Source: Torpedo marmorata (Eukaryota). Taken from it: a DNA stretch of 64,000 nucleotides. The stretch spans positions 88,412,001 through 88,476,000 of the forward strand of contig OZ360224.1 in NCBI GenBank assembly GCA_977017645.1. The letters run 5' to 3'. Position 1 is the stretch's first letter. Each line of letters begins with the position of its first letter. The translations under genes and the position numbers were made by a program. Positions 1-59,729 of this stretch are shown here, piece after piece. The notes beneath the pieces are model-generated. The model was not told the origin of the DNA. It searched no databases and saw only the letters and a list, made by a program, of their open reading frames with translations.

Positions 1-140
1 GCATGTTAAAGATTTACCAGTGATGGGGAATTTGTTAATTAATCTTGCTCGATATGCTTGACCCATTGAGCTCCTCCAGCAGATTGTGCTTGGGTTCAAA
101 TGCCAGCATTTGCAGTCTCCAGTGTGTCTCTTGTTAATTA

Positions 141-2632
141 ATCATAGAACCATAGAACACTACAGCACAAAAAACAGGCCATTCGGCCAGTTTGTGCCGA
201 CCATTATTCCGCTAGTCCCATTGACCTGCTCCCATTCCATAACCCTCCAGACCTCTCCCATCCCTGTATCTATCCAATTTATTCTTAAAACTTAAGATCG
301 AGCCCGCATTCACCACATCAGATGGCAGCTCATTCCACACTCCCACCACTCTCTGAGTGAACTTTCCCCTAATGTTCCACCTAAACCTTTCCCCTTTCAG
401 CTTAAAACGATGACCTCTCGTATTTATCTTCCCCAATCTAAGTGGAAAAAGCCTACTCGCATCCACTCTGCCTATACCTCTCATAATTTTGTAAACCTCT
501 ATCAAATCTCCCCTCATTCTTCTACGCTCCAAGGAATAAAGTCCTAACCTGTTTAATCTTTCCCTGTAACTCAACTCCTGAAGACCCAGCAACATCCTAG
601 TAAGTCTTCTCTGCACTCTTTCAATCTTATTGATATCCTTCCTGTAGTTAGGCGACCAGAACTGCACACAATATTACAAATTTGGCCTCACCAATGTCTT
701 AAACAACTTCAACATAACATCCCAACTCCTATACTCAATACTTTGATTTATAAAGGCTAAGATTCCAAAAGCTTTCTTTACAACCCTGTCCACCTGCGAC
801 GCCACCTTTCAGGGAACAATGTATCTGCATTCCCAGATCTCTTTGCTCCTCCGCACTCCTCAGTGCCCTACCATTTACTGTGTATGTCCTACCTTGGTTT
901 GCCCTTCCAAAATGCATCACCTCACACTTGTCTTCATTAAACTCCATCTGCCATTTTTTGGCCCATTCTCCCAGTTGGTCCAGATCCCTCTGCAAGCTTT
1001 GAAAATCTTCTTCACTGTCCACAATGCCTCCTATCTTTGTGTCACCAGCAAACTTGCTGATCCAATTTACCACATTATCATCCAGATAATTGATATAGAC
1101 AACAAACAACAATGGTCCCAACACAGATCCCTGAGGCACACCACTAGTCACAGGCCTCCAGTCTAAGAAGCAACCATCCACTACCCTGTTTTCTCCCACA
1201 CAGCCAATTTCGAATCCAGTTTACAACCTCTCATGGATACCTAGTGTCTTAACCTTCTGAACTAACCTCCCATGTGGGACCTTGTTAAAGGCTTTACTAA
1301 AGTCCATGTAGACAACATCCACAGCCTTTCCTTCATCTACCTTCCTGGTAACCTCCTCGAAAAACTCTACAAGATTCGTTAAACACAACCTACCACGCAC
1401 AAAGCCATGCTGACTGTCCTTAATCAGCCCATGGCTGTCCAAATACCTATATATCCTATCTCTCAGAACTCCTTACAATAATTTACCTACTACTGACGTC
1501 AGGCTCACCGGCCTATAATTACCTGGTTTATTTTTGGAGCCTTTTTTAAACAACGGGACATGAGCTACCCTCCAATCCTCCGGCACCTCACCCGTGGCTA
1601 AGGACATTTTGAATATATCTGCCAGGGCCCCTGCAATTTCTACACTAGTCTCCCTCAAGGTCCGAGGGAATATCATGTCCAGCCCGGGGGATTTATTTAC
1701 CTTTATTCGCTGTAAGGCAGCAAGCACCTCCTCCTCCTTAATCTCCATATGTTTCATGACATTTATGTTTGTTTCCCTTCCTTCCTTATGTACTATGCCA
1801 GTTTCCTGAGTAAATACTGATGCAAAAAAAAACTGTTTAAGATCTCCCCATTACGTGACCACACATAGTTGACCACTCTGATCCTCTAGGGGACCAATTT
1901 TGTCCCTTACTATCCTTTTACTCTTAATATACTTGTAGAAACCCTTCGGGTTTACCTTCACATTATCTGCCAAAGCAACTTCATGCCTTCTTTTTGCCCT
2001 CCTGATTTCCTTTACTTTTACTTTTTTTTTTGTTGAGTATTTTCTTGCATTTTCTGTACTCTTCAAGTACCTCATTAGCTCCTTGTTGCCTATACTTGAT
2101 ATACACTTCCTCTTCTTCTTAACCAGATCGCCAATATCCCTTCAAAACCAGGGTTCCCTATGTCTGCTAACTTTACCTTTAATCCTAACAGGAACATGCA
2201 AACTTTGCACTCTCAAAATTTTGCCTTTGAAGGCCATCCACTTACCTAACACACCCTTGCCAGAAAACAACATATCCCAATCCACTCTTCCTAGATCCTT
2301 TCTGATTTCCACAAGATTTGCCTTCCTCCAATGTAGAATCCCAACACGAGGAACAGACTTATCCTTTTCCATAATTAACGTGAAGCTAACGACATTATGG
2401 TCACTGGACCCAAAATGTTCGCCTACACATACATCTGTCATCTGATCTGTCTTGTTCCCTAATAGGAGATCAAGTATCGCATCCTCTCTCGTTGGCACCT
2501 CTATATATTGATTCAGAAAATTTTCATGAACACACTTCACGAACTCCAAGCCATCCAGCCCTTTCACAGTATGGGAGTCCCAGTCAATATTTGGAAAGTT
2601 AAAATCTCCTACTATCACAACTTTCTCATTAC
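141..2632 (-). mobile_element. CR1-clade LINE, 5'-truncated, frameshifted ORF2 (EN end, RT, 3' tail)
   Basis: Consecutive minus ORFs 2142..2735 (VIVGDFNFPNIDW, SDHN), 1473..1757 (NYRPVSLTS), 1221..1442 (YMDFSKAF), 735..1199 (GVPQGSVLGP, KFAGDTK), 212..667 (SLERRRMRGDLIEVYK). Short-repeat tail catagaac catagaac near 143. Confidence 0.93.
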
Positions 2633-3085
2633 ACAAATACCATCTCATATACAGTGCAGGAATTCCTTCTACAAGGTCATAGACACATACAGCACAGAAA
2701 CAGAACAGGCCCAACTTATCCATGCCAAACAACATGCCCTTCTGCTTTAGTCCTACTTGCCCGCATTAGGCCCATCTCCTCCAATCTCCTCCCATTATCT
2801 GTAATCATACACATCCACTTGTGCAATTAATTCATCTATCTTTGTGTGTCTTAATGCATAAAGCATGTGGAAAGCCTTCAAGCTCTTCCTAATGTTCTTT
2901 TTCATCTCCTTATCATTATTTTTGCTCTGTGAATCTGTTTACTTATTGCCCTTGATTTCTTTGTCTTCCACTTTTGGTTTTCTCCTTTCTGTCTTTTGCT
3001 TCCCCTTCCTGTGTCACCCTTCATCTGCTATTTCAGTTCAAACCCTACACAATAGCACACATAAAAACCTCACAAGAACATGGAC

Positions 3086-4707
3086 ACTCTACAAAAACTT
3101 AAAAAGAATGGAGGTTTAGCCTTACCAAACTTTAGGTTCTATTATTGGGCAGTCAATGTACGAAATCTTACATTTTGGTCACATTATATTAACCGTGAAG
3201 ACTGTCCAATATAGGTCTCTTTGGAATCTAATTCTGTTACAAAATTTTCCATTATTTCTCTTCTCGGATCCTCACTTCCCCTATCTTTAAATAAAGTAAC
3301 TGACAACCCAGTGGTTAAACATACTTTGAGGATCTGGATACAATTTAGAAAACATTTTGATTTACTGAGATTTTCTCTTTCTAGTCCCATTTTTAAAAAT
3401 TATTTCTTTAAACCTTCCATGAGTGACGTAGCTTTTAAAGAATGGTATAGATTAGGCATTAAATGTTTTTTTTTTAAAATGGAACGCTTCACGAATTTGC
3501 GTATCATCCTTGCACAGGGGCCATGCTAATCTTCTCTGCATCGTTCCAATTTTAGTATATGTGCTTCCGAAGCGAGCACTAAATGTTTTAAAGATTTATT
3601 TATTGAGGGAAGTCTTGGTTCTTTTGAACAACTGTCAGTTAAATATAGCTTACCAAATACTCATTTTTTTCGTTATTTACAGATTAGAGATATTTTGCGA
3701 TCTCAATTACATACATTTCCTAAGAGCATTGATAAGAATTTAATAGATATAATTTTTAATTTACAACCTTTTTATAATGGTTCAATATCTAACATTTATG
3801 ACATGTTGTTGGGAATAAGAGAGGCTCCCTTAGATAAAATTTAAAAAGCCTGGGAACAGAACCTACATCTTTTAATCTCTGAAGAAACTTGGAATGTAAT
3901 TTTAAAATTGGTTAATACCTCATCTTTATGTGCTCGCCACTCCCTCCTACAATTTAAAGTAGTCCATAGGGCTCACATGTCCAAAGTCAAATTATCTTGC
4001 TTTTATGCAGATGTATCTCCTCGTTGTGATAGATGCAACAATGGAGATGCTTCACTAATTCATATGTTTTGGACATGCCAGAGTCTTGGGAAATACTGGA
4101 ATGAAGTATTTCAAACTTTTTCTGTACTTTTTAAAGTTAATTTTAAGATTAATCCTTTAACTGCCTTGTTTGGTATTGTTAGAGACAGTGGCATAACTTT
4201 TAACGACATCTGATTTGCATGTATTAGTTTTTATTTCTCTTATGGCTAGGCGGGCAGTGTTGCTCAAATAGAAGGACGTTGCTCCGCCGACTCATGCTCA
4301 ATGGCTGCGTGACGTTATGTCATGTTTAAATTTAGAGAAGATTAGATGCTCAATTTCCGATTTGAATTTAAATTTTCAAACACTGTGGGGACCCTTTTTG
4401 AATTACTTTCAAAATCTTTGATTTGGTATTAATGCAGAGGTGTTGACTAATAAGGTAATTTATTACTCTGGTAAGGAATTTTTTTCCCTCTCTTTGCCAA
4501 ACAGCTTCGTTTTTGGTAGTGGTCTTAGATTTACTTTTTTATAATAAAATATTACTATAATATAATGTTTGATTGAGAATGCGGGGTACCTTGGATGAAT
4601 TGGTATGATCTAAGTGTAATGTATTATTTTTTGACTTTTAATATGTATTCTTATGTACTCTGTATTTTTCGATGTGGAATTTCAATTTCAATAAAAATAT
4701 TGAAAAA
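3086..4707 (+). mobile_element. L1-clade LINE, 5'-truncated 3' fragment with 12-bp TSD
   Basis: ORF2 C-terminal motifs (GGLALPNFRFYYWA; LLQFKVVHRAH; CDRC...HMFWTC). AATAAA and A-tail at ~4690-4709. AAGAACATGGAC at 3074-3085 and 4708-4719. Confidence 0.92.
3476..3579 (-). pseudogene. U6: U6 snRNA retrotransposed copy, full length
   Basis: Minus strand reads GTGCTCGCTTCGGAAGCACATATACTAAAATTGGAACGATGCAGAGAAGATTAGCATGGCCCCTGTGCAAGGATGATACGCAAATTCGTGAAGCGTTCCATTTT followed by an A-run. This differs from vertebrate U6 as I recall it by 4 substitutions and a shortened 3' end. TSD TAAATGTTTT at 3460-3469 and 3580-3589. The 5' flank is L1 sequence, with no evident PSE/TATA. Confidence 0.97.
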
Positions 4708-5436
4708 AAGAACATGGACTCTGGAAATGTCATCTCTCCTTGAACCAGTTCCACTGTCCCAGGATTTAATTCTCTCCCCGTTACACCATTTCTCATGTCC
4801 CATACTCAACATTCCATTTCTGCTTTGATTAGCATGTGACATTGATAATAATTCTGAGATTACGAGCCATAAAATCATATTTTCAAAACATTATTTCATT
4901 AAGCCCATTATTCAGCTGGTAGGATTCCTTCCTTCTTTTACCTAGATTACTAGTACTAATATCCTCCTCAATACCCAGCTGTTTGCCCTCCTCCACTCTA
5001 GAAACACACTGATACATCCTTGACCTTAGAACCAGGGAGACAACATACTGTCCTGGAGTCTTGTTTGCAAGTGCAGAAATGTCCAGTTTTTTTTCAAATC
5101 ATGTTTGAGTCCCCTATCACTGTAGCTTTCCCATCTTTTGTCCTCCCCTCCTGTGCAGCAGAGCAACCGATGGTACCATGGACTTGCCGATGGCCTTGCC
5201 TTGATAAGCAATTTTCCTCAACACCCAACATCTGTTAGTGAGGGAGATAACCAGAGGACACACTGGCACTATCTGCTTTCTTTGACGATGCTTGGGTCAC
5301 CCATATCTCCAACCCGCCTGTTCAGTTTTTACCTATGGAGTGACCACATCCCTAAATGTTCTATTCAAAGACATCACAGCATCATATGTGCTCCACAATG
5401 ATTCATCCACAGCTCTAGGTTTATAATAGTTAATAT

Positions 5437-6038
5437 CACTGGACAACAACTGTTTTCAAAAGGTTTGCTTCCTCAAAAAAATGGGGGATTATGATAGACA
5501 ACTTCAAGCTGAACACAAAGATAATTTCAGATTTGCTGTATCACATAGGAAGTTGGAGAAACATTAAATTAACTTTTATTCAATTTACTTGTTTAATCGC
5601 ATAACGTTGCGTTAGTTCAACTGACCCAAAAATGCTTAGCCACTGATTTTCGTTTGTACTCAGCATCTGATGCATCTCGTGTCAGTGTCCAACAATAGTC
5701 GGCCAGCATTGATAGATTCCAGTTGCTCCGATACCACTTTTCCATGGTCGCAATGTCCTGGTGAAACCTTTCACCATGTTCATCACTGACTGCACCAAGA
5801 TCAGCAGGGAAGAAGTACAAGTGCGAATGCAGAAAATGAATTTTCAATGACATGTTGCACTTCATGGTTTTGTATGCTTGAAGTAGACTTAAAATATGAC
5901 AGGAAATCACAAAAATAGGTTATATATAAAAAATGGTACGTGATAGGAAAATCTTAAGGTGACTTTCAAGATCAGCAGCCAAAAATCTATAAAATATACC
6001 TAAAAGTGTTCAGGAAGCAAAATCTTCATTGTGCAGTG
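5437..6038 (-). mobile_element. Non-autonomous Chapaev3-like (CMC) DNA transposon with transposase C-terminal remnant
   Basis: Imperfect TIRs: CACTGGACAAC...TTTGCTTCCT (left) and reverse complement CACTGCACAAT...TTTGCTTCCT (right). Flanks TAT and TAA. ORF 5617..5910 contains CNMSLKIHFLHSHL..F...LGAVSDEHGERFHQDI..ME..Y....MLADYCW, which I recognise from Chapaev3-type transposases. Confidence 0.78.
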
Positions 6039-6461
6039 TAATTAACGGCAATTGGATACTTTATCTGCACAAATGGTCATTGGCAAAAGGTGAAATGTAG
6101 CTGATCTCCCAAGTTGCTCTGGTGGAGTATGCTAAGGTTTAGAGCTCTCCCAGCCATGATTTAACCTGTAATTACTTTCAATTATATTAAAGCTTACAAA
6201 TTACATTAGGGCCTTATTTTACTTTCAACACTCCCCAATACAAACAAAAGACCTTTTAAACTCTTTGCGTCTTGTCCCCCATCATTTTTAAGCCATCGTC
6301 TTCTATTCCTGCTCCTTGTAAACCAACAGTTTTCAAAAAGGTAATTGGAAATGTATTTGAAGACAATCTCAGTTGCAGGTTATAGAGAAAAGCCAGGGTC
6401 TGTAACTTAGAAAATCTCAGTTAACTTAAAGGTATAGCAAGGGAAAAGAAAGCTATACATT

Positions 6462-7498
6462 AACCTACGATAAACAAAAGTGCTGGAGAAACTCAGCAAG
6501 CCACGGAGTATCTACTGGAAGAGTAACCAACGTTATGGGCCTGAGCCTTCATCAAGGTATGAGCAAAAAGCAGACAGGCACCTGAATAAAAAGATTGGGG
6601 GGGGGGGGAGGGAAGGGAGGAGAGGAGGGAGGAACACAAGCTAACAGGTAAGGTCATTGGTGGATATACTGTAGGTGGGAGGTAGAAGAGAAAAAAGCTG
6701 AGAAGTGATGGGGAGGGTGTAGCTCTGGAAAGGGAAGGGAAGGGGGTGGGAAGTTGGAGGAAAGGAGACAGAAAGATAGGGAAAGAGGGACTGGGGGAGA
6801 GGGTTAACGGAAATTAGAGAAGATGTTAATGCCATCTGGTTGGTGAGTGCCAAGACAGAATACAAGGTGCTGTTCCTCCAAATTGTGGGTAGTCTTTGTT
6901 TGGCAGTGCATGAGGCCATGGATTGACATGTCAGTATGGGAATGGCAAGCGGAATTAAAATGGACAATGAAGGAGCTCAACGAGGCAGTTTCCCAGTCTG
7001 CGTCATCTCTCTAATGTAGAGAGGGTCACAACTGGAGCACCAGATACAGTAGATGACCCTGCAGATTCACAAGTGAAGTGTTGCTTCACTTGGAAGGAGT
7101 GTTTGTGCCCCGAATGATGGCGAGGGAGGAGGTGTGGGTAGAAGTGCAGCATTTCCTGCGCTCACATGGGTAGGTAACAAGGGGGTGATTAGTGGGAAGG
7201 GATAAGTGGACGAGGGAATCCCAGAGGGAGCGGTTCCTGCGGAAAGCATAGAGGGGAAGATGTGTCTAGTGGCGGGATCAGGTTAAAGGTGGCGGAAATT
7301 GCGAAAGATAATGTGTTGGAAGTGGAGGCTGGGGGGGTGGTAGGCAAGGACAAGGGGAATCCTGTCCTTGTTGCATCTCGGGGCCAAGGGGGCCAGGGAA
7401 GATGTGCAGGAAATAGAGGAGAAGCCACATATTTTGAAGGAGAGCATCTCCGATGTTTTGGAATGGAAGACCTCATCCTGGGAGTAGATGTGCAAGGG
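6462..7498 (-). mobile_element. Penelope-like retroelement fragment (post-RT region, degenerate GIY-YIG, terminal repeat)
   Basis: RCNKDRIPLVLAYHPPSLHFQHIIFRNFRHL in ORF 7283..7534. Shares its terminal segment (gctggagaaactcagc...cctgagccttcatcaagg) with other copies in the window. Confidence 0.8.
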
Positions 7499-7855
7499 TA
7501 TTGAACAATAAGAATCCTTGATGCAATTACACAAATAGTCTGTGGAACATTTAGTCTACTTGCCCAAAGGATACAGAAAGAGAGCAATAACAATTCCTGG
7601 GAGGGGATGGCTCTCTTACAAGGAAAAGCAGAATGCATAATAGTCTTACAATTCCAGAATTGAGTAGAAAAGAGAGGTGATTCCCCCAGAAATGCACAAA
7701 GTTCTTGAGGGCTTGACAGGATGGATGAAAGTGGGTTCTTTCTCCAAGCTGAAGGGCTGAGAAGTAGGAGTTAAGATAGGATAAAATACATGTCCATTTA
7801 GGATTGAAATTTGGAGACAGTTCTTCAATCAGTTTGCTGTGAATCTTTGGAACTA

Positions 7856-9009
7856 CCGTATTTTACAAACCAGGTACCCCCCCCCCACCCCCGCGCGTTA
7901 TATGCATTTTCGCGCTATACAAGAATATTTTTACATGTTGAAACAACGCGCACAATTTAAATCATGACAGGATTAAATCCTGCTTAACTCTGAAGCCGAT
8001 CTATTTAATTGAATCCTCTCCAAAACTTGTTAATGTGTTGCAGGATGATGTCATCTATATAATGGGTGATTAATACCTCTGGGGGGGGGGGGGGGAGTTG
8101 AATGGGTGTATATCGTGGGAGATTAACTGTGGCAGATAGTGGGACTATGGAATGTGTTTGTCTCATGTCCCAAGTAAATGTTTTGTCTCATATCCCAAGT
8201 ACCGGGTAAATGAGACAAGAATGTGTTTTGTCTCACGACCCAAGAACATGCACAATTTATAGCGGGCGTGGGAAAGTCGCACCGGCAATTTATAGCGAGC
8301 GTGGGAATGCAATAGTGGCAATGAAAGAACATGCACAATTTAAAGCTAGCGTGGGAATGTATGGTAATAACGGCAATGAAAGAACGCGCACAATTTAAAG
8401 CTAGCGTGGGAATGTACGGTGATAGCAGCAATGAAAGAATGCGCTCAATTTATAGCTAGCGTGGGAATGTAATAGCGACAATGAAAGAACGCACTCAATT
8501 TATAGTTAGCGTGGGAATGTAATAGCGGCAATGATTCTGCCCTATGGCATCAGTTTAATCATCCTCATTACATCAAATCAAACCATAAATTTCTCAATTG
8601 CACACTGTTTTTAACAAGATAAGGTTTCTTTTAAAGAAAGGCTTTTTAAATCATGACAGATTTAACATCCTGCTTAATTCTGAAGCCTGTCTTCGATCTA
8701 TTTAATTGAATCCTCTCCAAAACTTGTTAATGTGTTGCAGGATGATGTCTTCTATATAATGGGCGATTAACACTTCTGGGGGAATTGAATGGGTGTAAAT
8801 AGCGGGAGATTAACTGTGGCAGATAGTGGGACTATGGAATGTGTTTTGTCTCATGTCCCAATTAAATGCAAATTGCTTTTGTCAGTCGGAATTTAGAATA
8901 CTGCACCTGCGCGGTATATGCGTGTGTGCGTTATACGAGAATATTTTTACACAATTTATGATTTTCTACGCGTTATATGCGGGTGCACGTTATATGAGTG
9001 AAAATACAG
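7856..9009. mobile_element. Non-autonomous Tc1/mariner-pogo (Tc2-like) DNA element with internal repeats
   Basis: Ends TA|CCGTATTTT ... AAAATACAG|TA (TIR plus TA TSD). Subterminal GCGTTATA repeats. Appears to interrupt a degenerate CR1 3' end. Confidence 0.72.
8228..8535. repeat. Minisatellite, ~55-60-bp unit, ~5 copies
   Basis: Recurring caattt(a/t)(a/t)agctagcgtgggaatgta...gcaatgaaagaacgc. Confidence 0.88.
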
Positions 9010-9535
9010 TAACCCAAAGCTTTTGCTTAGTCATTCAGTGCAATAAAGACAGATTAATACTGAGATGTACAGAGCTCATGAAGACAAAGGGATTGGATAA
9101 ACTGTGGTAAAAGTTCAAACATGATCAGAACTGAACAGATTAAAGGAGTAAAACAATAAAGCCCCTATGACCAAGATATTATGATTCACAATAATATTCC
9201 ATGATGAAGATAAAGCTATCCTTCTTACAGCTATATTTACCATTTAAATTGTTAAATCCACCTCCATGTTTAGTGCCTGACTAATGATCGTCAGTTTTAC
9301 AATCAAGTTTAAATTAATGGATTTGAACTTGCCATTATTTGGACTATAATTTTTGAACACGAAAACAATATTTCCATTTTCTATCAGTTGGATCTGTAGA
9401 GGTACCTGTAAAAATGATGGTGGTTCAAAAATATCTTAAATGTATATTTGTGGCTCATTTATCCATCCCAGCTACTTTCAGTTCAAACTCCTTTTTCTCC
9501 TTTGTTTCACCAGCAATATTCATATCCATACACTT

Positions 9536-10388
9536 CAGAATCAGAATTTATTGACATGAACAAGTCATGAAATTCGGTGTTTTATGGCAGCATCATAGTG
9601 CAATTAACATTCATATTAACCATCTTACGACATTACTATAAAAAATTATAAATAATAGTGCACGAAAAGTAAGGCAGTGTCTGGTTCATTGATTATTCAG
9701 GAATCTGATGGCAGCGGGGAAGAAGCTGTCCCTGTGCCGTTGAGTGCTCGTCTTTAGGCTCCTGTACCTTTTTCCCGATGGAAGCAGAGTGAAGAGGGCA
9801 TGGCCTGGGTGGTGGGGGTCTTTGAGGATAGAGGCTGCTTTTTTAAGACACCGCCTCATGTAGATGTCCTCGATGGAGTGAAGTTTGGTGCCTGTGATGT
9901 CACAGGCTGAGTTAACAACCCTCTGGAGTTTATTCTTGTCCTGAGAGTTGGCGGCTCCATACCAGGCAGTGATGCAACCAGCCAGAATGCTCTCCACGGT
10001 ACACCTGTAGAGGTTTATGAGAGTCTTCGGTGACATACCGAATCTCCGCAAACACCTCACAAAGTATAGCCGCTGACGAGCCTTCTTTGTGATTGCATCA
10101 ACGTGGATGCTCCAGGACAGATCCTCGGAGATGTTGACACCCAGGAATTTGAAGTTCTTGACCCTCTCCACTACTGAGCCCTCGATGAGGGCTGGGTTAT
10201 GTTCCCCTGACTTCCTCCTGAAGTCCACAATCATCTCCTTGGTTTTGCTAACGTTGAGCTCAAGGTTTTTGTTGTTACACCATTCAACGAGCTGATCTAT
10301 CTCCCTCCTATATGCTTCCTCATTGCCGTTTGTGATTCTGCCGACAACTGTGGCGTCATCGGCAAACTTGTAGATGGCATTGGAATTG
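9536..10388 (-). mobile_element. Rex1/Babar LINE 3' fragment (family A, copy 1)
   Basis: ORF 9686..10468 has [41 protein letters not shown]. (TTCTGA)n tail. Near-identical to 28901-29848 and 34250-35833. Confidence 0.92.
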
Positions 10389-10534
10389 TTATTCTTATTA
10401 CCACTTACATTGCAGTTAAACCAAACCTTTGAGGAATCATAATTTACCCTAACGATCATTACGTTCAACTGTTTGAGGCTGCAAAGAAATCAGTTCTCTT
10501 CTACAAAAATAACACCTGAATTAGAAATACATGT

Positions 10535-12235
10535 GAAACAAGAAAGTTTGCAGATGCTGTGATTGTGGTAAATACACAAAAGTGCTGGAGAAACTCAGCA
10601 AATCCCGTAGTGTGCAGAGGAGGCAAAGATATATAACCAACGTTTCGAGCCTGAGCCCTTTGTCATGAGCAAAAATCAGGCAGGTGCCTGAATGAAAAGG
10701 TAGGGGGAGGAGCACAGGCCAACAGCCAAGAGGCCATAGGTGGACATGAGAGAAAAGCTGAGAATTGATCGGGGGAGGGTGGTTAGCTCTGTGAATGCAG
10801 AGCTGGAGGAAGGAGAGAGGAATCGGGAAAGAGAGAGAGAGAAAGCGAGAGAGCAAGAGAGAAGGGGTAGGGAGCTGGAGGAAAGGAGACATAGGGATAA
10901 TAAGGATAGGGAGCGAGAGAGACAGGGAGGGGCACTAATGGAAACTGGAGAAGTCGATGTTAATGCCATCTGGTTGGAGGGTGCCCAGCTGGAATACAAG
11001 CTGTTGTTCCTTCAATTTGCAGGTGGTCTCAGTTGGGCAGGCCATGACACCATGGAAAGATATGTTGGCATGGCATGGGAATGGTGCAAGGAATTGAATG
11101 GGTTACCACAGGGAGGTCCCCGCTATTACAGTAGACAGTGCTCAACGAAGCTATCTCCCAAAACTGCGCCCAGTCTCTCCGATGTACAGGAGACCACAAT
11201 GGGAGCACCGGATGCAGTAGATGACCTCTTCAAATTCACAAGTGAAGTGTTGCTTCACTTGGAATGGCTCTGAGGGAGGAGGTGTGGGCACAAGTGCAGC
11301 ATTTCCTGCAGTCACAGGGGTAGGTGCCAAGGGGCGATTGGTGGGAAGGGATGAGTGGACGAGGGAGTCACGGAGGGAGCAGTCCCTGTGAAGATGTGTC
11401 TGATGGTGGGATCACTTTGTAGGTGGCAGAAATTGTGGAGAATGATGTGTTGAATGCAGAGGCTGGTGGGGTTGGAAGCAAGGAAAAGGGGAATCCTGTC
11501 CTTGTAGCATCTTGGGGCAGAGGGGGCCAGGGCAGATATGCAGGAAATGGAGGATATGCGGGTGAGGGCCCAGTTGACGGTAGTGGAGAGGAAGCCACAT
11601 TTTTCGAAGAAGGATGACATCTTGGATGATCGCGCATGAAAGACCTTGTCCTAGGAGCAGACGCGACGGAGACGGAGGAATTGAGAGAAAGGAATAGAAT
11701 CCTGAAGGGGACCGAGTGTGAAGAGCTGCAGTCGAGGTAACTGTGAGAGTTGGTGGATTTGTAGAAAATGTCTGTCGAGAGTTTGTCTCTCAAGATGGAG
11801 TCAGAGAGATCGAGAAAGGGGAGAGTGTTGCTTAGTGATGGACCAAAGTGAATTTGAGGTCAGGGTGGAAGTTAGCAGCAAAGTGGATGAAGTTGACTCG
11901 CTCATCATGGGTGCATGAGGCAGCACCAATCTAGTCGTCAATGTAGCGGAGGAAGAGTTGAAGGGCCTTACCTGTGAAGGCTTGCAACATGGATTGCTCC
12001 ACATAGCCAACAAAAAGGCAGGCATAGCTGGGGGCCCATGCGGGTATAAATAGCTACCCCTTTGACTTGGAGAAAGTGGGATGAGTCAGTTATTGAGGGT
12101 AATTTTTAACCAGGTGCCTGACTGCTTTTTGCTCATACCTTGACGAAGGGCTCAGGCCTGAATCGTTGGCTATACATCTTTGCCTACTCTGTACGCTGCG
12201 GGACCTGCTGAGTTTCTCCAGCACTTTTGTGAATT
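10535..12235 (-). mobile_element. Penelope-like retroelement fragment with inverted terminal repeat
   Basis: RT remnants (MG..MGP.YACLFVGY and RY.DD at ~11930-12050; LSTDIFYKSTNSHSYLD). Segment ~10575-10690 reappears reverse-complemented at ~12110-12232. Confidence 0.83.
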
Positions 12236-12424
12236 GGAAATACAATGTTTTTTTGAAAAATATGCATGAATGCCAAAAACTAGGCCAGTTGATTTTGGGT
12301 TTCATTGTTTCTCTGATAATTTACACAAGATTTATCAATTTTGTCTGCATTAACAGGTTCTGTCATTGATATTAACAATGAATCAACATACAAAACTCAA
12401 TTAATTTTTTTTATTACAATTTGG

Positions 12425-13175
12425 AACGCATGCGCAGATTGCCGTCACTGGGGAGGGAGAGAGATTGAAGAGGGAGAGAGAGTGACGGAAATCTGCGCAT
12501 GTGTTCCAAATCACAACGCAGGAGCGGGGCCGACGTCGGACTCCCAGCAGGGCAGGGGCCCTTCTGGCAGGTCAGGAATAGGTCTGGCGTTGGCCTCCTG
12601 GCAGGTTAGAATCAGTGCCGGCGTCAGCCTCCCGGCAGGAGCAAAAGCAGCATCAGCCTCCCGGCAGGTCAGGAATAGATCCGGCGTCGGCCTCCCGGCA
12701 GGTCAGTAAAAGTGTAGACGTCAGCAGGTCAGGAGTAGGTTCGGCGTCGGCCTCCCGGCAGGTCAGTAACAGTGTAGACGTCAGCAGGTCAGGAATAGAT
12801 CCGGCGTCGGCCTCCCGGCAGGTCAGTAACAGTGTAGACGTCAGCAGGTCAGGAGTAGGTTCGGCGTCGGCCTCCCGGCAGGTCAGGAACAGGGCCAGCA
12901 TCGGCCTCCCGACAGGTCAGGAGCAGAACAGGCGTCGGCCTCCCGACAGGTCAGGAGCAGGGCCGGCGTTGGCCTCGCGGCAGGTCAGGAGCTGGGTCGG
13001 CTTTCCAAATCACAACGGGGCCGGTGACGTTGGCCTCCCGGGTCGGCAGCAGCGGGGACATTGGCCTCCCGGCAGCAGCGGAGACATCGGCCTCTATAAT
13101 TCTATAATCCGAAAAAAATCCGAATTCCGAAAAGTGTCCGTTCCCAAGGTTTTCAGATAAAAGGTTAGGCACCTG
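12425..13175. mobile_element. Partial pogo/Tigger-like non-autonomous DNA element with GC-rich minisatellite
   Basis: Right end ...ggttttcagataaaaggttaggcacctg|TA resembles a CAGGT-type TIR with TA TSD. Left TIR not found. Confidence 0.55.
12520..13000. repeat. GC-rich minisatellite: ~35-bp base unit and four 60-bp composite units alternating A/B
   Basis: Lines at 12661, 12721, 12781 and 12841 are near-identical 60-mers alternating aggaatagatccgg and aggagtaggttcgg. Confidence 0.93.
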
Positions 13176-14221
13176 TATACAATAGTCTAAAAAAATACCA
13201 GTCTGGCACACTCAAAGTCCCCTGACGCAGAAAATTCTCTTCAAATATGGATACGCAGTGCTTTTTACCTTGCAGCTGTCTCATGCTCATGTAAATTAGA
13301 ATCACAGAACATTTACATGCAACAGGTGGCCATTAAGCCCATCAGGTCTGAGCTAGTCAACAATGACATACCCAACTTAATCCTAACTTCCAGCACCAGT
13401 CTCAAATCCCTGCAGTCATACCTCTTCGAGTATACTCCCATGTACTCTTTTAATGTGATGGAAGTTTTTGTCTCTACTACTACTTCAGACACCACATATC
13501 CATGATTGAAAAAAAAGTTTCTTTATCTCCTTTCAAATCCATCTACCAATTGCTTTAAATCCATGACCCCCAGGTTTTTGACTCCCGTAGGAAAATAAAT
13601 CCTGCCTAATTATTCTATTCAGGCCATCAATTTTGTATCTCGCAATTATAATTTCCCCTCAGCCTTCTCTCCTCCAAAGAACGCAAACACAGTCCATCTC
13701 AAACCCAGCTCTATTTTCAGGTTTTGGCTACATTCTAACAAGTCTCCTCTGCATGCTCACCAATACAGTCATATTTTAAAAATTTTACTATTATTATATT
13801 TCCTTAGGTCATTGATTTAGGCCATTTAGCCCATCTAATCGACATCTTAAAGAAATACTATTAGTTGCATTGCCCCTTTTTTATTAATTCATTCAAGGGA
13901 TATGGGGTTCACAGGCTGAGGCAGCATCCCTAACTGCCCTTAAACTGTGTTAAACCAGAGTCTGCAGATGCTGGAGTGGAGTGCAATACATTTGAACACT
14001 ACTGTGAGAGGTGGGTATATGTAAAACTGCTGTTCGGGTGGGAGTTCCAGGATTTCGACCCAACGATGGTGAAGGAACAGCATAATATTTGCAAGTCAGG
14101 ATTACGTGTGGCTTGGAGGGGCAACTGCCAGATGGTGGTGCTTCCATGCTTTTGCTGCCCTGTCCTTCTAGTGGCTAGAGGTGGTGGGTTTAGAAGGTGG
14201 AGATCAGAATATTATTATTGA

Positions 14222-15006
14222 GGATCAGAATATTATTTAAATGGGAAGCGATTGCAGCATGATGCCATGCAGAAGGACTTGGGAGTGCTTGTACATGAAT
14301 CACAAAAGATAGGAAAGATAGGTTTGCAGGTGCAGCAGGCTATCAAGAAGGCAAATGGAATGTTGGCCTTCATTGCTGGAGGGATTGAATTTAAGAGCAG
14401 GGAGGTTATGCTGCAACTGTACAAGGCTGAGACCGCATCTGAAGTACTGTGTGCAGTTCTGGTCTCCATACTTGAGGAAGGATGTATTAGCTTTGGAGGC
14501 GGTGCAGAGGAGGTTAACCAGGTTGATTCCAGGGTTGAAGGGGTTAGTCTATAAGGAGAGATTGAGTCATCTGGGACTGTACTCACTGGAATTTAGAAGA
14601 ATGAGAGGGAATCTTATAGAAACATATAAAATTATGAAAGGCATAAATAGGATAGAGGTAGGCAAGTTGTTTACATTGATAGGGGAGACCAGAACTAGGG
14701 GACATAGCCTCAAGATTCAGGGTAGTAAATTTAGGACAGAGATGAGGAGGAACTGCTTTTCCCAGAGGGTGGTGAATCTGTGGAATTCACTGCCCATTGA
14801 AGCAGTGGAGGCGACTTCAGTACATATTTAAGACAAGGTTGGATAGATTTTTACATAGTAAGGAAATTAAGGGATATGGGGAAAAGGCAGGTAGCTGGAG
14901 ATGAGCCCATCATCAGATCAGTCATGATCTCATTGAATGGCAGAGCAGGCTCGACGGACCGGATGGCCTACTCCTACTCCTGCTCCTATTTCTTATGTTC
15001 TTATGT
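14222..15006 (+). mobile_element. CR1 LINE 3' fragment inserted into an older degenerate repeat
   Basis: ORFs 14252..14554 and 14355..14831 (QKDLGVLV; RPHLKYCVQFWSPYLRKD; NLWNSLP). (TTCTTATG)n tail. GATCAGAATATTATT duplicated at the 5' junction. Confidence 0.9.
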
Positions 15007-16667
15007 CCTGTCTAAGGAACTTTGGTGAATTGCTGCAGTGCATCCTGTGGATATTAAAAACTGCTGCTCCTGCATGTCGGTGACGGAGTGATTGAATGGT
15101 TGTCGACCAAGGATCGGAGAACTATAGTCAGAGACTGCGATTTCTTTCCTTGCTAGATGAAATACGTCCCAGGCAAAAAAAAACATGTTCATCTCACCTA
15201 ATGTTTCACACTCATTCACTTCAATTATGGTGAACTTCATGCACAAGACCCTAGTCTTCTGCAGAACAGTTGAATTAAGGTATATTAAGATAGGGAAAAC
15301 AGGATTATGGTTTCCTCGTATTTGTCCACTGTTCACTATCTTTAAAAGCAAATCAGAAGGCATTTTGCATGGAAGTCCCCTCTCAACTGGATTGCAAACG
15401 AGGATACTACTGTAAAGATAGCATTCTCTCATTATCCATAAAATATATTCTTGGCCATCTCTTAAAAGCTTTCTGAACAATAAGATCAGATAAATGGTAA
15501 ATATTAGCACTGTTCAACAGCCATCTTTTGGATAAGGCGTTAAACTGAGGCCATATCCGCATTTTCAGTGCATGGCTATTTTTTTTGAAATTGAGCAAAT
15601 CCTAGCCAATACTTGATCCTCGTCGGTCACAGGGAGGAAGATACAATTAAAAGTTAGTTGATGCAGAGCAACATGTTGATCTGACATACTGCAGCCACTT
15701 CGTCTTGATCTTCATCAGCATCATTATCACTCACTTATCTTTTTGCAGGTCACCGTTCAGCAGAAGTGTTGTTGAAACAGCAATCTCAACATCATGGTTC
15801 CAATAAGAACAGAGGCTGAGTAAGTTGAATCAAGTGATTCACTCACCTCAAAGGCTCTGCCTTTAGTTACAAGACACTTGAAACATATTTTCCCTGCCTT
15901 GGATGCTGCAGCTAGAATTATGTTTCAAATTCAGCCCTTTCAACATTGAACAGTTGATGGATGTCTGAAGAACAGAGAGTAGTTATTGAATTTTCTTCGA
16001 GATTATCACTCTCTGGCACTAGCATGATTCAATTCTTGCTTGCCACTTGGCAGTCCAATCTTGTAGGTTGGAATGGGCTGCTTCATTATCAGCAACAGTC
16101 CATATAGCACTGAACAATGTCAGGCAAAAGCACAAACACTGACAAAATGAAGAGAAGGTCAACCAGTGAAGCTGTTGAAGGGCCTGTGACAATTGACCTC
16201 TAACCACACTCACTGCTTTCCTTTGCAGACTGATAAGGTTGTATTTACCAGGTCATTTCCTTTGACGCCCCCAGATCTCAATTTCTACTGAAGTCCTGGA
16301 TATCATACTTAATAAAAGGTTATCTTGATGTCAAGGTAGTCTACTCCTGCCTCTTCCCAGGTAATTAGACCTCCTGACCATGTCTGGATTAAAGCTGTGG
16401 AATGAGGTCAGGATGAAGGCGAGCTGACACAATTGGTGAATTCCTGCCATCATTGCACTATGGGACAAAGCTGACAGAAAACTCTGTTTTTTTTCCAGGT
16501 CTGTTATATCTGGATAACCACCCACACTATCTACAATGCATGAATCTGCTTAATATATTGCAGCAAAAAAAAAGTTAAAAACATGGTTAAAAATATTCTA
16601 TCAACTACACTAGACCAATGATAATGTTAGACATGAAAATGAAAGTCATAAAAATATTACATAGCAC

Positions 16668-16800
16668 CTTTATGTCTTGGCATCTGGATTGGGGGCAGCT
16701 TTTTCACCAGTAAAAATAGTCGTTCTGCACATTTCAGACTCTTTAGCTGTTTCAAATCTGTTTCAACTGTAAAGAACACTTTGCCTGATATCTGTTCCAC
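16668..16800 (-). CDS. THUMPD2: THUMPD2 coding exon 2 (133 nt)
   Basis: Acceptor tttgtag, then VEQISGKVFFTVETDLKQLKSLKCAERLFLLVKKLPPIQMPRHK+G, then gtgcta. Matches my recollection of human THUMPD2 VEYISGKVFFTTCSDLNMLKKLKSAERLFLLIKKQFP. In phase with exon 1. Absent from the ORF track. Confidence 0.9.
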
Positions 16801-28199: not shown

Positions 28200-28545
28200 A
28201 AGGAGAAAGCCGTACCCGGGACGAGTGACCGAGCGGGGCCCAGGAGGGAAGGCTGCCGCCCCGCTTCCTGCTCACTTACCTCGCAGGCGCCCAGCTTGGC
28301 GCGCACTTCCTCGGCCAGAAAGCGCTCCAGCCCCCGGCTGGCCGTGCAGAAATAGCGGCACGCAGCGCTTGGCATCGCAGCCGGAGGCCGTGCCCTTTCC
28401 TCAGGACACAACATGGGCACCAGGCCCAGGGTTGCCTGGGAAACAAACCGGAACTCCCGTGCCCAACCGGAGGTTACGATCGCACAGAACGCGTGCGGTT
28501 CTACTTTAAATTAAACCGCAAACATTTCCAGAGCGTGCATTGCTT
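28200..28545 (-). promoter_or_regulatory. CpG island / probable THUMPD2 promoter
   Basis: High GC and CpG density around exon 1 in non-repeat sequence. ETS-like ACCGGAA at ~28447. Confidence 0.7.
28280..28414 (-). CDS. THUMPD2: THUMPD2 coding exon 1 (start ATG at 28414, alternatively 28375)
   Basis: MLCPEERARPPAAMPSAACRYFCTASRGLERFLAEEVRAKLGACE followed by strong donor GTAAGT. Resembles human ARFFCTAGRGLEPFVMREVRARLAATQ as recalled. Lies in a CpG-rich island. Confidence 0.88.
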
Positions 28546-31230: not shown

Positions 31231-31497
31231 TTTTATTTGGTTAAATGCTATCCTGATGTCAAAGGTACTTACTTCCAGTTCACCCTTGGCATTTAGCCCT
31301 TTGGTTCCATGTTTAGAGCAATAATGTGGTGACACGTGGAGCTGAGTGGCTCTGGTGAGATGCTTACTGGGTATTGCTGAACAGGTTATTGGTAAGTGCC
31401 GCTTGTTTGCACTGTTAACTACATTTTCCATCATTTTGTTGATAAGTCAGAGTAAATCAGGGAATTAAAAAGGCAATCTATATACAATACACAAAAT

Positions 31498-31663
31498 TGT
31501 TGGATAGTGTGCTACCACTAGAAGGAGTCAGAGATGAGTTGTGTGGCAGCTGTTGCATCTTGTCTGTATGTGTTCTGTTCTTAGTGCTATTTTCTTTAGT
31601 TAATAAATGTAGTTGTTTAAAAAAGAACCTAAGTTTCTTTATTGTAATAGAAGAAACATCACA
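31498..31663 (+). repeat. 5' LTR of Gypsy element
   Basis: Matches 37131-37322 (gatagtgtgctaccactag...agaagaaacatcaca). First bases diverge, so the start is approximate. Confidence 0.9.
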
Positions 31664-31678
31664 TGGTACCAGGAGTGG
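31664..31678 (+). promoter_or_regulatory. Primer-binding site complementary to tRNA-Leu(TAA) 3' end
   Basis: TGGTACCAGGAGTGG is the reverse complement of CCACTCCTGGTA-CCA, the 3' end of vertebrate tRNA-Leu(TAA) as I recall it. Confidence 0.75.
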
Positions 31679-34249
31679 CAAACCGGATACACGGAAGATT
31701 GCAATGCGACTTACTGTGGCGGGACCTAAAGCTCTAGAGGTTTTCAACACATTTGTTTTTGCCGAGGCAGAAGACCAGAGCAAATTCGACAAGGTTATCG
31801 AGATGTTTGATGAACACTGTTCATCAAAGAAAAATGAAACCTTCGAGAGGTACGTGTTTCGCTCGCACACACAGCTGCAGGGAGAGAGCTTTGATACTTT
31901 TGCAACAGACTTAAAATTAAAAGCAAGAACATGCAATTTCAGACCGCTGCAAGATTCAATGATCCGTGATCAAATTTTGTTCGGAATTAATGATAGGAAA
32001 GTGAGAGAGAGGTTGCTGCAAGAGACAGAGCTTATATTAGCTGGAGCTGTGAAGATATGCCACGTCAGTGAATTAGCTCTGCAGCACGCAAAAAAGTTTG
32101 GTGATAGAGGAAAAGCCAGTGAAAATGAAGGCATAGTCATAGCCACAGTGTCTGGACACACACACAAACAAAATATGAGATATAGGAAACATCAAAAAGC
32201 TGGAGAGACATTCATTTGTAAACGATGTGGCACTAAACATGCGCCCAAACAATGCCCAGCTTATGGGAAAGTCTGTAATAAGTGCAAAGGGCAGAATCAC
32301 TATGCAAAGCAATGTTTTTCCAAAGGGAAACAAGACAGAAGTAAAAGTGTACACACTATAGAAGAAACTGCTCTCAGTGATACACTTTTCGTGGGCATGG
32401 TAGTGCAGGAAGTGAACAGTGTCGAGCAGGATAAGTAGACTGTGTCATTGCATACAAATGGAACAAATGTTCCTTTCAACATGGACACAGGGGCAATGGT
32501 CAATTTGATCTGTGAGCGCGACATCAGGGCAATGAAGATAAAGCCATAAATCCATACAAATCCTGTACTGCTCAAAGCCTACAATGGACAGAGCATTGAC
32601 ACGAAAGGTACATGTAACTCAAGGTGAAAGTTAAAGATAAAGAGCACCACCGCAGGTTCACAGTAGTCCCAGATGGACATTATTCACTGGTGACAAAGCA
32701 TGTGAAAACTTAAGCCTAGTCTAGAGGGTGTACCACATTAACAGTGACAATGCACGGAACAGCGTAGAGGAAATACTGGATCAATCTCCAGACATCTTCA
32801 AGGGGTTTGGAGTTCTACCATTCACCTATAAGATACAGTTAAAGGAGGACGCACAGCCAGTAGTGCATGCCCCGAGGCGGGTTCCAGCGCCACTAAAAGA
32901 AAAGCTCAAGCAGGAATGACGGCACTAGGGGTCATAAAGTGGAGGAGCCCACAGAATGGGTGAATTCAATGGTGTGTGTCAAAAAGAAGAACGGTGACCT
33001 ACGTGTGTGCAAGGACCCAAAAGACTTGAATGCCAATATAAAGAGGGAACATTATCAGATTCCGACGAGGGATGAAATTACAAGTGAGATGGCAGTTGCA
33101 GTTTTTCACTAAATTGAATGCATCCCAGGGCTTCTGGCAAATAAAACTGCATGATGATAGCACAAAATACTGTACATTTAATACACCGTTTGGCCGATAC
33201 TCCTGACTGAGGATGTCTTTTGGAATTTCCTCAGCTCCGGAACTGTTCCACAGGACAATGGAGCACATCATAGAAGGCATAAATGGGGTACGTGTGCACA
33301 TGGATGACATGATCCTATGGGGATCAACACAACACAACGAGAGGCTCATCAAAGTGCTACAACACATCCAGAAGAATGGATTAAAGTTAAACAGAGAAAA
33401 ATGTCAGTTTGGTATGAAGGAAATCATCTTTCTGGGAGATAAACTGTCAGAGAAGGTGTGGAGCCAGACAAGAGCAAGGTGAAAGCAATTTTAGAGATGC
33501 CCAGACCCACTGACAAAAAAGGCATATCGAGAGTGCTGGGAATGATCAATTTCATTGGTAAATTCATACCAAACCTGTCTTCCAAAACAATGCACCTGTT
33601 ACAGGACAAATGTGAATTCAAGTGGACAGACAACCACGAGGAAGAATGGGGACGACTGAAGACCATTCTAACTATAGAACCAGTACTTTTGATGTTCTTT
33701 GACGCATCCAGAAGGACGAAAATATCAATGTACGCTTCAAAAAGATGGAATAGGTGCCGTACTACTTCAGGCTATGGGAGAAGATTGGAGGCCAGTAGCA
33801 TACGCATCAAGGACGATGACAATATCTGAATGTCGATATGCACAGATCGAGAAAGAGTGTCTCAGTCTGGTTTATGGACTCGAGAAATTTCACAGTTATG
33901 TGTATGGTCCACCAACATTCGTGGCAGAGACAGACCACAAGCCATTAATAGCGATAATCAAGAAAAATCTCTGAAATGTCGCCAAGAATCCAAAGACTGA
34001 TGATGAAGCTACAACGTTATGACTTTGAATTGGTGTACACACCAGGGAAATTTATTGTGTTAGCTGATGCGTTATCCAGCGCAACGACGCAGAGTGAAGC
34101 ACACAATGAGAGTTCCACAGAGACAGATGTGAATCTGATCACTGAATCGCTTCCCGTATCTGACATGAAGTCCAAGCAGATCGCAGCTGAAACAGAAAAG
34201 GACACAGTTCTGCAGAAAGTCATCAAGAATCTGAATGAAGGATGGCCTA

Positions 34250-35833
34250 ATAGAACAGTGCCTAATAGAATCCCTGAAAAGGCTGAGGACCCTGTGATAT
34301 CTGTCTCTGAGGGCGACGTCAGAACATCATTCAAGAGGGTGAACCCTCGCAAGGCGTCAGGCCCTGACGGCGTACCTGGCAGGGTATTGAAAATCTGCGC
34401 CAACCAACTAGCCGGAATGTTCACGGACATTTTCAACCTCTCATTGCGGCAGTCAGAGGTTCCCACCTGCTTCAAAAGGGCACTTCCGGTACCCAAGAAG
34501 AGTAGCGTGAGCTGCCTCAACGACTACTGCCCAGTAGCACTAACTTCTACTGTGGTGAAATGCTTTGAGAGGCTGGTCATGGCCAGAATTAACACATACC
34601 TAAGCAAAGATCTGGACCCACTGCAATTCGCCTATCGCCACAATCGCTCCACAGCAGATGCAATATCGCTGGCTCTCCACTCAGCTCTGGATCACCTCGA
34701 AAACAGCAATTCATACATACGGTTGCTCTTCATCGACTACAGCTCGGCCTTCAATACCATTATTCCCTCAGTGCTGGTCAAGAAACTACAAACTCTAGGC
34801 CTCTGTACCCCACTCTGCAACTGGATCCTTGACTTTCTCATCGGAAGACCACAGTCAGTACGAATTGGAAACAAGGTCTCCTCCTCACTGATTATCAACA
34901 CAGGCGCACCCCAAGGATGCGTGCTTAGTCCACTGCTCTACTCGTTATACACTCATGACTGTGTGGCCAGGCACAATTCCAATGCCATATACAAGTTTGC
35001 CGATGACACCACAGTTGTCGGCAGAATCACAAACGGCAATGAGGAAGCGTACAGGAGGGAGATAGATCAGCTCGTTGAATGGTGTAATGACAACAACCTT
35101 GAGCTCAACATCAGCAAAACCAAGGAGATGATTGTGGACTTCCGGAGGAAGTCAGGGGAACACGACCCAGTCCTCATCGAGGGCTCAGTAGTGGAGAGGG
35201 TCAAGAACTTCAAATTCCTGGGTGTCAACATCTCCGAGGATCTGTCCTGGAGCATCCACGTGGATGCAATCACAAAGAAGGCTCATCAGCGGCTATACTT
35301 TGTGAGGTGTTTGCGGAGATTTGGTATGTCACCAAAGACTCTCGTAAACTTCTACAGGTGTACCGTGGAGAGCATTCTGGCTGGTTGCATCACTGCCTGG
35401 TATGGCGGCGCCAACTCCCAGGACAAGAGTAAACTCCAGAAGGTTGTTAACTCGGCCTGTGACATCACAGGCACCAAACTTCACTCCATCGAGGACATCT
35501 ACATGAGGCGGTGTCTTAAAAAAAGCAGCCTCTATCCTTAAAGACCCCACCACCCAGGCCATGCCCTCTTCACTCTGCTTCCATCGGGGAAAAGGTACAG
35601 GAGCCTAAAGACGAGCACTCAATGGCACAAGGACAGCTTCTTCCCCGCTGCCATCAGATTCCTGAATAATCAATGAACCAAAGACACTACCTTACTTTTC
35701 GTGCACTATTGTTTATAATTTTGTATAGTAATGTCGTTAGATGGTTAATATGAATGTTAATTGCACTATGATGCTGCCGCAAAACACCGAATTTCATGAC
35801 TTGTTCATGACAATAAATTCTGATTCTGATTCT
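34250..35833 (+). mobile_element. Rex1/Babar LINE (family A, copy 3) inserted into Gypsy pol
   Basis: Gypsy NLNEGWP|RGEYQQYYNIRAEL is split by ~1.58 kb of Rex RT ([12 protein letters not shown]...IDYSSAFN...KFADD) ending in (TTCTGA)n. CTA is shared at both junctions. Confidence 0.94.
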
Positions 35834-37130
35834 AGAGGTGAATATCAGCAATACTACAACATCAGAGCTGAGCTGAGTGTTGTCAATGGGCTTCTACTCA
35901 GACAGAGCAGAATTGTCATTCCTCAATCACTGCGACAAGAGATGCTGAAAAGGGTGCATGAGGGGCACCTTGGAATGGAAAAATGCAAGAGGAGGGCCAG
36001 AACTGCTGTTTATTGGCCAGGGATAAACGCTGACATTGACAGAATGGTTTCCAGCTGCGAGACCTGTTTGAAACATCACGCAAAGCAGGCAAAGGAACCC
36101 ATGATGATAATTTACTTACCAGCAGAACCATGGCAGAAAGTTGGGGCTGATCTGTTCTACATGGATGGAAATAATTACTTGCTGGTTATTGATTATCTAT
36201 CGAACTATCCGGAGATAGCGCTGCTTCCTAGCATGTCTGCTGCTTGTGTGATCAAATATATGAAATCGATCTTTGCAAGACATGGAATTCCTCAAATTGT
36301 CTACATTGAAAATGGACCATGCTACAGCTGTGGAGAATTCCAGAACTTTGCAGAAGAGTATGATTTTCAACATGTGACTTCAAGTCTGCATCCACAGTCA
36401 AACGGTAAAGCAGAGAAAGGAGTTCATATAGTTAAACAGTTGCTCATGAAAGCACTAGACAGTGGCTCAGACCCATATCTAGCTCTATTGAGTTACAGAG
36501 CTTTGCCACTTGAACATGGCATGTCACCCACTGAGCTTCTGATGGGACGTAGACTACGCACCGCACTTCCCTACTCTGCAGACCCAAACAAGAACAGAGA
36601 TGTCGAAGATGTCGAACGAAACAAAAGCATCTGCAATGGAGACAAAAAGCAAACTATGACAAGTCAGCAAGAAGCTTAGGGCCACTGGCACAACATGACG
36701 CTGTGAGACTCAGAGATTCCAACACTTGGGACAAAAAGGCTACTGTTCTGGAGGAAGTAAATCCAAGATCCTACACTGTCAGAACAGAGGATGGTCAAAT
36801 ACTGAGGAGGAATCGAAAGAGCCTTCTGAAAATGCAAGAGATACTGCAGGAACAGACAGATGCAGAAGATTCAGTCTGAACAGCAACAGAGGAAACACCA
36901 CCAGTGCTAGACAGGAGTGGACCAGCAGAGCCGACACAAGCACCTGTGTTAAGAAGATCCACATGTGTTATCAAAGCACCTGACAGACTGAATCTCTAAA
37001 AGAAAAAGAACTGCACACTTCAAAGTTTGTGCTGCTGATGTTTGTGTTTACGTTTGTGTTGAACTTTAAATTGAAAGAATACTGTATTAGTGTGTCATGT
37101 TGTTAGATTAAATATCTCAAGGAAAGGGGA

Positions 37131-59462: not shown

Positions 59463-59729
59463 AATCAAATAATAACCATTCCATGTCAATCAAATCCACC
59501 AGCGTTTCCCTCTTATTCTGCTGTATATACATTTCCTCCTCAACTAGATTAAAAGACAGAAATAAAAAAAAGAAAAACTCCTCTATAAAAAACACTGGTC
59601 TTCTACTCCCAGTGCTACCCCCCTCCATTGTTCGAGAAGCAGCTCTCGCCGCTAAGGTGGTGATAGGTTCGGAAGAAGTGTCCGTAAACCCACCTCCCCC
59701 CAACAGATATATATTTGTCCAACATATAT

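Follow-up and report, generated by a model that had tools for sequence, protein, structure and literature searches.

A full-length U6 snRNA retrocopy nested in an L1-like element within intron 2 of the U6 methyltransferase gene THUMPD2 of Torpedo marmorata: a probably inert processed pseudogene

Copies of U6 snRNA mobilised by the L1 machinery constitute the poly(A) class of U6 pseudogenes, which mostly become non-functional (Doucet 2015, PMC4476161). As described in that source, members of this class consist of a full-length U6 sequence with an A-rich tail and a target-site duplication (TSD), inserted at a TTTT/A-type site and devoid of a promoter, and the genomes surveyed contain hundreds to thousands of U6 matches each. 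In the U6/L1 chimeric pseudogenes of the same source (PMC4476161), as at the locus described here, U6 adjoins L1. A second system that comes close to the locus described here is that of METTL16, a U6-modifying enzyme that acts on hairpins in the MAT2A 3′-UTR, controlling intron detention and decay (Hunter 2023, PMC10578476). With its substrate-like elements in a pre-mRNA, METTL16-MAT2A (PMC10578476) is the model for a feedback role that an initial annotation of this DNA had proposed for the U6 copy under study. The third is the modification of U6 itself at m2G72 by THUMPD2-TRMT112 (Wang 2024, PMC11014329; Kleiber 2026, PMC13109388), whose known substrate is mature, 2′-O-methylated U6 in the late snRNP (PMC13109388).

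The DNA analysed (from now on, the window) is a stretch of 64,000 nucleotides of the genome of Torpedo marmorata, a cartilaginous fish. It contains a U6 copy that resembles the poly(A) class in all of the above respects, and what is peculiar to it is the host gene, which encodes the U6 m2G72 methyltransferase. In particular, six chondrichthyan THUMPD2 proteins were compared by tblastn with 264 kb (the window and the 200 kb before it, numbered negatively), and the coding exons of THUMPD2 were found in their proper order along the minus strand, between about 28400 and about -43420. The parts of the gene within the window that matter here are the following:

28280..28375, minus strand: coding part of THUMPD2 exon 1, counted from the second in-frame ATG and ending at a GT donor (tblastn)
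16668..16800, minus strand: THUMPD2 exon 2, 91-95% identical to ray THUMPD2, with AG/GT boundaries
1..16667, minus strand: portion of THUMPD2 intron 2 within the window, from tblastn and splice sites (acceptor at -4475)

The homology of exon 1 reaches about 28414. Exon 3 starts after a normal AG at -4476, that is, 4.5 kb before the window, and the last coding exon ends near -43420. The host gene is the THUMPD2 orthologue. Since exons 2 and 3 flank the U6 copy and lie on the minus strand, the copy resides in intron 2 and in the sense of THUMPD2. The intronic position, which the initial annotation had only presumed, is therefore borne out by the location of exon 3 (tblastn and splice sites), and the alternative that the gene ends before the copy was rejected, as exon 3 and later exons were found beyond it. 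Intron 2 measures 21,143 bp, and the distances from the copy to the donor and to the acceptor are 13,088 nt and 7,948 nt, respectively. In the 150 kb beyond the window, the sole Rfam match is 5S rRNA-like, namely a degenerate match of 51 bits (L036:2088-2202) beyond the 3′ end of THUMPD2.

Within the window, the U6 copy is the sole Rfam match at gathering score (RF00026, 3473-3579, minus strand, model positions 1-105 of 105, 102.9 bits, E 1.2e-25). The copy and the element that surrounds it are made up of the following parts:

3580..3589, minus strand: TSD 5′ of U6, AAAACATTTA, identical to the other TSD copy at 10/10 positions
3476..3579, minus strand: full-length U6 copy (nt 1-100 followed by TTTT), from Rfam and comparison with 100 genomic copies
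3470..3475, minus strand: A tail of the U6 copy, six A, or ten when the four A of the TSD are counted
3460..3469, minus strand: TSD 3′ of U6, AAAACATTTA, present once in 29/29 paralogous L1 copies
3089..4707, plus strand: host L1-like LINE, 5′-truncated (3′ part of ORF2, 3′ UTR, short A tail), from paralogue alignments
3074..3088, plus strand: TSD of the host L1, 5′ copy, about 15 bp with one mismatch, flanks read by eye
4708..4722, plus strand: TSD of the host L1, 3′ copy, flanks read by eye

Read on the minus strand, the order is AAAACATTTA, U6 nt 1-100 (window positions 3579-3480), TTTT (3479-3476), six A and again AAAACATTTA, in agreement with the full-length, A-tailed copy in THUMPD2 sense that had been recognised at the outset. 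Compared with the majority of 100 sampled genomic copies, the sequence carries C14A, A41G, C66T and C77T, and its 3′ end reads CCA-TTTT, not CCATATTT; these four changes and the retention of G72 had already been noticed and are confirmed. A41G alters the ACAGAGA box. Functional U6 genes are preceded by a PSE and a TATA element; upstream of the copy there is antisense L1 ORF2 sequence, and elements of the U6 type are absent, as judged by eye against the usual promoter layout. In other words, full length, an adjoining A-rich tract, a TSD and a TTTT/A-type site are all present, while a functional gene would have PSE and TATA, an intact ACAGAGA box and neither A tail nor TSD. The copy is thus an ordinary poly(A)-class U6 processed pseudogene.

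The site of insertion can be reconstructed from paralogues of the host element, which are 93-95% identical to it (best 40 of 5951 candidates scored) and whose alignments span 3088-3469 and 3576-4712, either side of the insert. In the 29 best paralogous copies of the 5951 candidates, U6 is absent and the site is present once (29/29), with an identical 10-mer in 25/29, and the empty site reads TGTTTT/AAAG on the plus strand. The 10-bp repeat is therefore a true TSD, and the pre-insertion site TTTT/AA that had been proposed holds. The host L1 is antisense to both THUMPD2 and the U6 copy and possesses its own TSD of about 15 bp, separate from that of U6, so that two separate events took place: the L1 inserted first, and U6 then entered it in the opposite orientation. 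U6/L1 chimeric pseudogenes, reportedly treated also by Moldovan in 2019, have U6 fused in sense to a 3′ fragment of L1 within one TSD. Here, on the contrary, the U6 copy runs antisense to the L1, ends in a tail of its own, is bounded by its own TSD and is flanked on either side by L1 sequence; a chimeric origin was rejected because of the orientation and the two separate TSDs. Likewise, the insert is found in 0/29 of the best paralogues (of 5951 candidates), which speaks against its having been carried along by an amplifying L1 subfamily.

The protein relationships of the host element are distant. A zf-RVT match in it is weak (E 1.2e-4) and falls below the cut-off, and its identity to the ORF2 with endonuclease and reverse transcriptase (RT) at 55794-59489 is 27% over 336 aa. 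The latter belongs to an L1-like element on the minus strand (window positions 55794-61124), with an uninterrupted endonuclease and RT frame of 1231 aa and, upstream of it, an ORF1-like frame of 328 aa; by protein identity (27%) this element would be of a different family from the host L1. The window also contains LTR-retrotransposon-like frames on the plus strand (31446-36679), with integrase domains at 35741-36676 and, among them, a LINE RT frame at 33958-35538. In addition, an independent U6 insertion elsewhere in the genome (L016/L134, G000:C5:89.17 Mb) lies in a related L1, 72% identical to the host L1, about 25 bp from the equivalent site and in the opposite orientation relative to the L1. 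As for public sequencing runs, none of the 21 screened contained half of the sampled words, the best share being 0.25 (four runs of one sample). For the interval 2640-3460, contigs from such runs cover the L1 part (3088-3460) deeply and leave the unique flank (2808-3087) uncovered, which indicates that these runs contain the same L1 family and are uninformative on the locus.

That U6 retrocopies can be numerous, as anticipated, is evident from the 6.22-Gb genome, in which a 24-nt core of U6 is matched exactly at 283 sites and, when up to 2 mismatches are allowed, at 481, the reversed control giving 0; a DNA search with U6 returned 603 first-look candidates, of which 40 were scored. The 283 exact sites are distributed almost equally between the strands (141 vs 142). 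The first 100 of them in contig order, across six contigs, were taken as a sample that, being chosen on an exact core, leans young and does not allow positions 42-65 to be assessed for change. In this sample 88/100 copies are near full length, and 77 of these 88 show a T run followed by an A-rich tail, so that the poly(A) class dominates. An exact TSD of at least 9 bp accompanies 65/100 (4/492 in a shuffled control), rising to 83/100 when one mismatch is allowed (control 57/496), with a median of 15 bp and A as the first TSD base in 72 of the 83. Both flanks are L1-like in 6/100 copies by blastn and in 10/100, counted by hand, when tblastn is added; accordingly, nesting of U6 in L1 is unremarkable. 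Five further copies (L083, L096, L097, L103, L105), in which U6 is followed by repeat-like sequence and has no nearby TSD, are possible U6/LINE chimeras.

Three sampled loci are of another kind. They are identical to the majority sequence, have no A tail and share PSE/TATA-like upstream sequence: one (L115) is at G000:C2:239.89 Mb, and two (L164 and L165) are at C11:265.80 Mb, 5.7 kb apart in opposite orientation. With the upstream sequence judged by eye, they are probable U6 genes. All three have C14, and no promoter-bearing A14 source gene was found among the 100 listed of the 283 exact sites. C14A, in turn, occurs in 29/95 sampled copies and is likely to come from a variant source gene or allele.

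The frequencies of the individual changes determine what can be read from them. The changes A41G, C66T and C77T are shared by just 1/88, 2/88 and 2/88 siblings, respectively. Of the four variants put forward as diagnostic of this copy, A41G, C66T and C77T are hence rare in the sample, while C14A, common to 29/95 siblings, is uninformative and the shortened 3′ end recurs in 9/86. The retention of G72 is uninformative as well, since 86/88 siblings keep it. Not counting C14A, which is a shared variant, 3 of 100 nt are substituted in the copy, and the host L1 has 39 changes in 1492 nt (2.6%) relative to its family majority (Fisher p=0.74). At the CpG and non-CpG rates of the host L1, 3.35 changes would be expected in the copy (P(X<=3)=0.57), a weak comparison, as with 100 sites and 3.35 expected changes only near-total conservation is detectable. 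The copy has diverged at the rate of its host L1 and, in this low-power comparison, there is no sign of constraint relative to it; the copy is younger than the L1, yet its changes per site are not fewer. Siblings average 1.92 changes, and 63/88 have fewer than the present copy, in a sample that leans young. Reverse transcription errors at modified U6 bases were considered as a source of the variants and are not supported: in the 88 copies changes cluster at CpG (0.080 per site, vs 0.013 elsewhere), and positions 41, 70, 72 and 77 show no excess (1, 0, 2 and 2 of 88 copies changed).

Taken together, we are highly confident in reading this as a full-length, A-tailed U6 copy within an older, truncated L1 in intron 2 of THUMPD2, which L1-type machinery probably produced by reverse transcription and which is probably inert. 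On the established TPRT pathway, an L1-type ORF2 protein would have nicked TTTT/AA in the older L1, primed synthesis on an oligoadenylated U6 RNA whose source gene probably carried A14, and copied this RNA in full. The hallmarks of the insertion point to L1 ORF2p as the maker, and L1-like elements are abundant in this genome. Having no U6 upstream promoter elements, the copy would not be transcribed on its own; it would pass through the THUMPD2 pre-mRNA as 0.5% of a 21-kb intron, be discarded with it and drift. As such, it neatly illustrates a by-product of L1 that is already well described, and matters little by itself. Of modest value is the side result that this genome carries poly(A)-class U6 retrocopies by the hundreds, young and mostly full-length, in a lineage absent from the genome table of Doucet 2015 (PMC4476161), where the species range from Xenopus to mammals and cartilaginous fish are missing. 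Among the top listings of a literature search no title dealt with U6 retrocopies of sharks or rays; as evidence that such work does not exist, this is weak.

The place of such a copy in a gene that modifies U6 is likely a coincidence. With uniform insertion and 283-603 copies, the chance that one falls in the 71.8-kb coding span of THUMPD2 is 0.33-0.69%, and half of that for a copy in sense. As this single-gene chance is low, the reading as coincidence needs a look-elsewhere argument. Many genes handle U6, among them METTL16, TUT1, USB1, LARP7, MEPCE, SART3, LSm2-8 and the PRPF genes, THUMPD2 was singled out afterwards, and very many windows were scanned; across 10-30 genes of the span size of THUMPD2, the chance becomes 3-19%. 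Chance co-location, which had been offered from the start as an alternative to function, is supported.

The low single-gene probability would also fit a non-random but non-functional targeting, in which U6 retrocopies would accumulate preferentially in genes that act in U6 metabolism or in loci that are open and expressed. We consider this very unlikely, as the 100 sampled sites are scattered over six contigs, the strand counts are nearly equal overall, and we know of no mechanism linking L1 target choice to gene function.

Read as cis feedback, the proposal of a feedback or decoy element would mean that THUMPD2-TRMT112 binds or methylates the ISL in its own intron 2, thereby tuning the splicing or decay of its own pre-mRNA. 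The copy is indeed in sense and within the intron of the enzyme itself, and the single-gene chance of only 0.2-0.7% is the one result that favours this earlier idea. G72, C61, C62, C63, A73 and U74 are unchanged, and all three pairs of the upper ISL stem (62-72, 63-71, 64-70) are preserved at the sequence level. The predicted pairing of this stem is 0.97 for the gene copy vs 0.72 for the U6 copy alone, and, with no matched control, 0.55 when 100 nt of flank are added on each side and 0.06 with 250 nt.

Published work on the enzyme bears on both sides of the question. THUMPD2-TRMT112 is reported to have a similar Kd for unmodified and 2′-O-methylated ISL, and neither C77A nor changes in the loop, position 66 among them, impeded methylation of the 2′-O-methylated ISL (PMC13109388); in vitro, the enzyme requires neither the 5′ stem-loop nor the 3′ U tail of U6 (PMC11014329). 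On the other hand, efficient methylation depends on Cm62 and Cm63, which make a difference of more than 10-fold, and U6 reaches THUMPD2 late, once its 3′ end has been processed (PMC13109388). The present copy, like U6, keeps G72 and the bulge nucleotides; its RNA would be part of an intron, lack the modifications and have C66U in the apical loop. Recognition of U6 that is unmodified reportedly requires this loop, 65GCGCA69, and each single change in it lowered the methylation of such U6 to about 15-50%, the published variant being C66G and not the C66U of the copy (PMC11014329); as far as the two accounts go, PMC13109388 and PMC11014329 disagree on the weight of the loop. In human CRAC of THUMPD2 most peak reads are U6, and THUMPD2 itself is absent from the peak gene list of that data set, which is human and not from this species (PMC13109388). 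Names of RNU6 pseudogenes appear in the CRAC table with fractional counts (PMC13109388), and these entries are probably multi-mapped true U6 reads.

The hairpins of METTL16-MAT2A are conserved and adjoin the regulated intron (PMC10578476), whereas the copy described here is one retrocopy, of recent origin, that lies far inside an intron. Its distance from either splice site, the absence of a constraint signal (in a weak comparison), the hundreds of similar copies and C66U all weigh against a regulatory role, and a loosely worded literature query on THUMPD2 autoregulation or decoys showed nothing relevant among its top listings. The claim of a feedback or decoy element is consequently not supported, and we hold cis feedback to be exceedingly improbable. 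If it were true, a retrocopy of a substrate RNA would have come to regulate the very enzyme that modifies this RNA, and a single L1 accident would have given rise to a young counterpart of the METTL16-MAT2A circuit.

In another reading, the intron, once excised, would give off a stable small RNA resembling U6 that serves in trans as a decoy or as a variant of U6. A full-length copy in sense to a transcribed gene would be in keeping with this reading, which is nonetheless extremely doubtful: U6-type upstream elements are absent, A41G alters the ACAGAGA box and is rare among siblings (1/88), U6 needs a Pol III 5′ end for capping and a free 3′ oligo-U for LSm2-8 binding, it is not known to have ends protected in the manner of snoRNAs when these are freed from introns, and any single intron is greatly outnumbered by true U6. 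The preferred reading thus remains that of an inert processed pseudogene.

Elsewhere in the genome, the survey of U6 copies brought to light a retrocopy that is more unusual than the one in THUMPD2. Specifically, at L181:611-1229 (G000:C2:43,224,010 onward, plus strand; also L104) three small RNAs lie head to tail in one sense: a full-length U6 (114 bits), an A-rich linker, a full-length U1 (144.8 bits), a second A-rich linker, 7SL/SRP RNA (135.5 bits) and an A-rich tail. The whole is bounded by one 13-bp TSD, AAGAAAGGTCTTA, which was read by eye, a scripted search having found none. The U1-7SL junction matched one place among the 40 scored of 236 candidates, so that within these the tripartite retrocopy looks single-copy. 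Tripartite chimeras are known; a chimera of three small RNAs with no LINE part was not found in a brief literature search. Two template switches, or the ligation of oligoadenylated RNAs, are its likely origin. Finally, near-identical 7SL-like matches form clusters on G000:C25, at about 165.6-166.1 Mb and 202.5-204.2 Mb, which are probably 7SL gene arrays.
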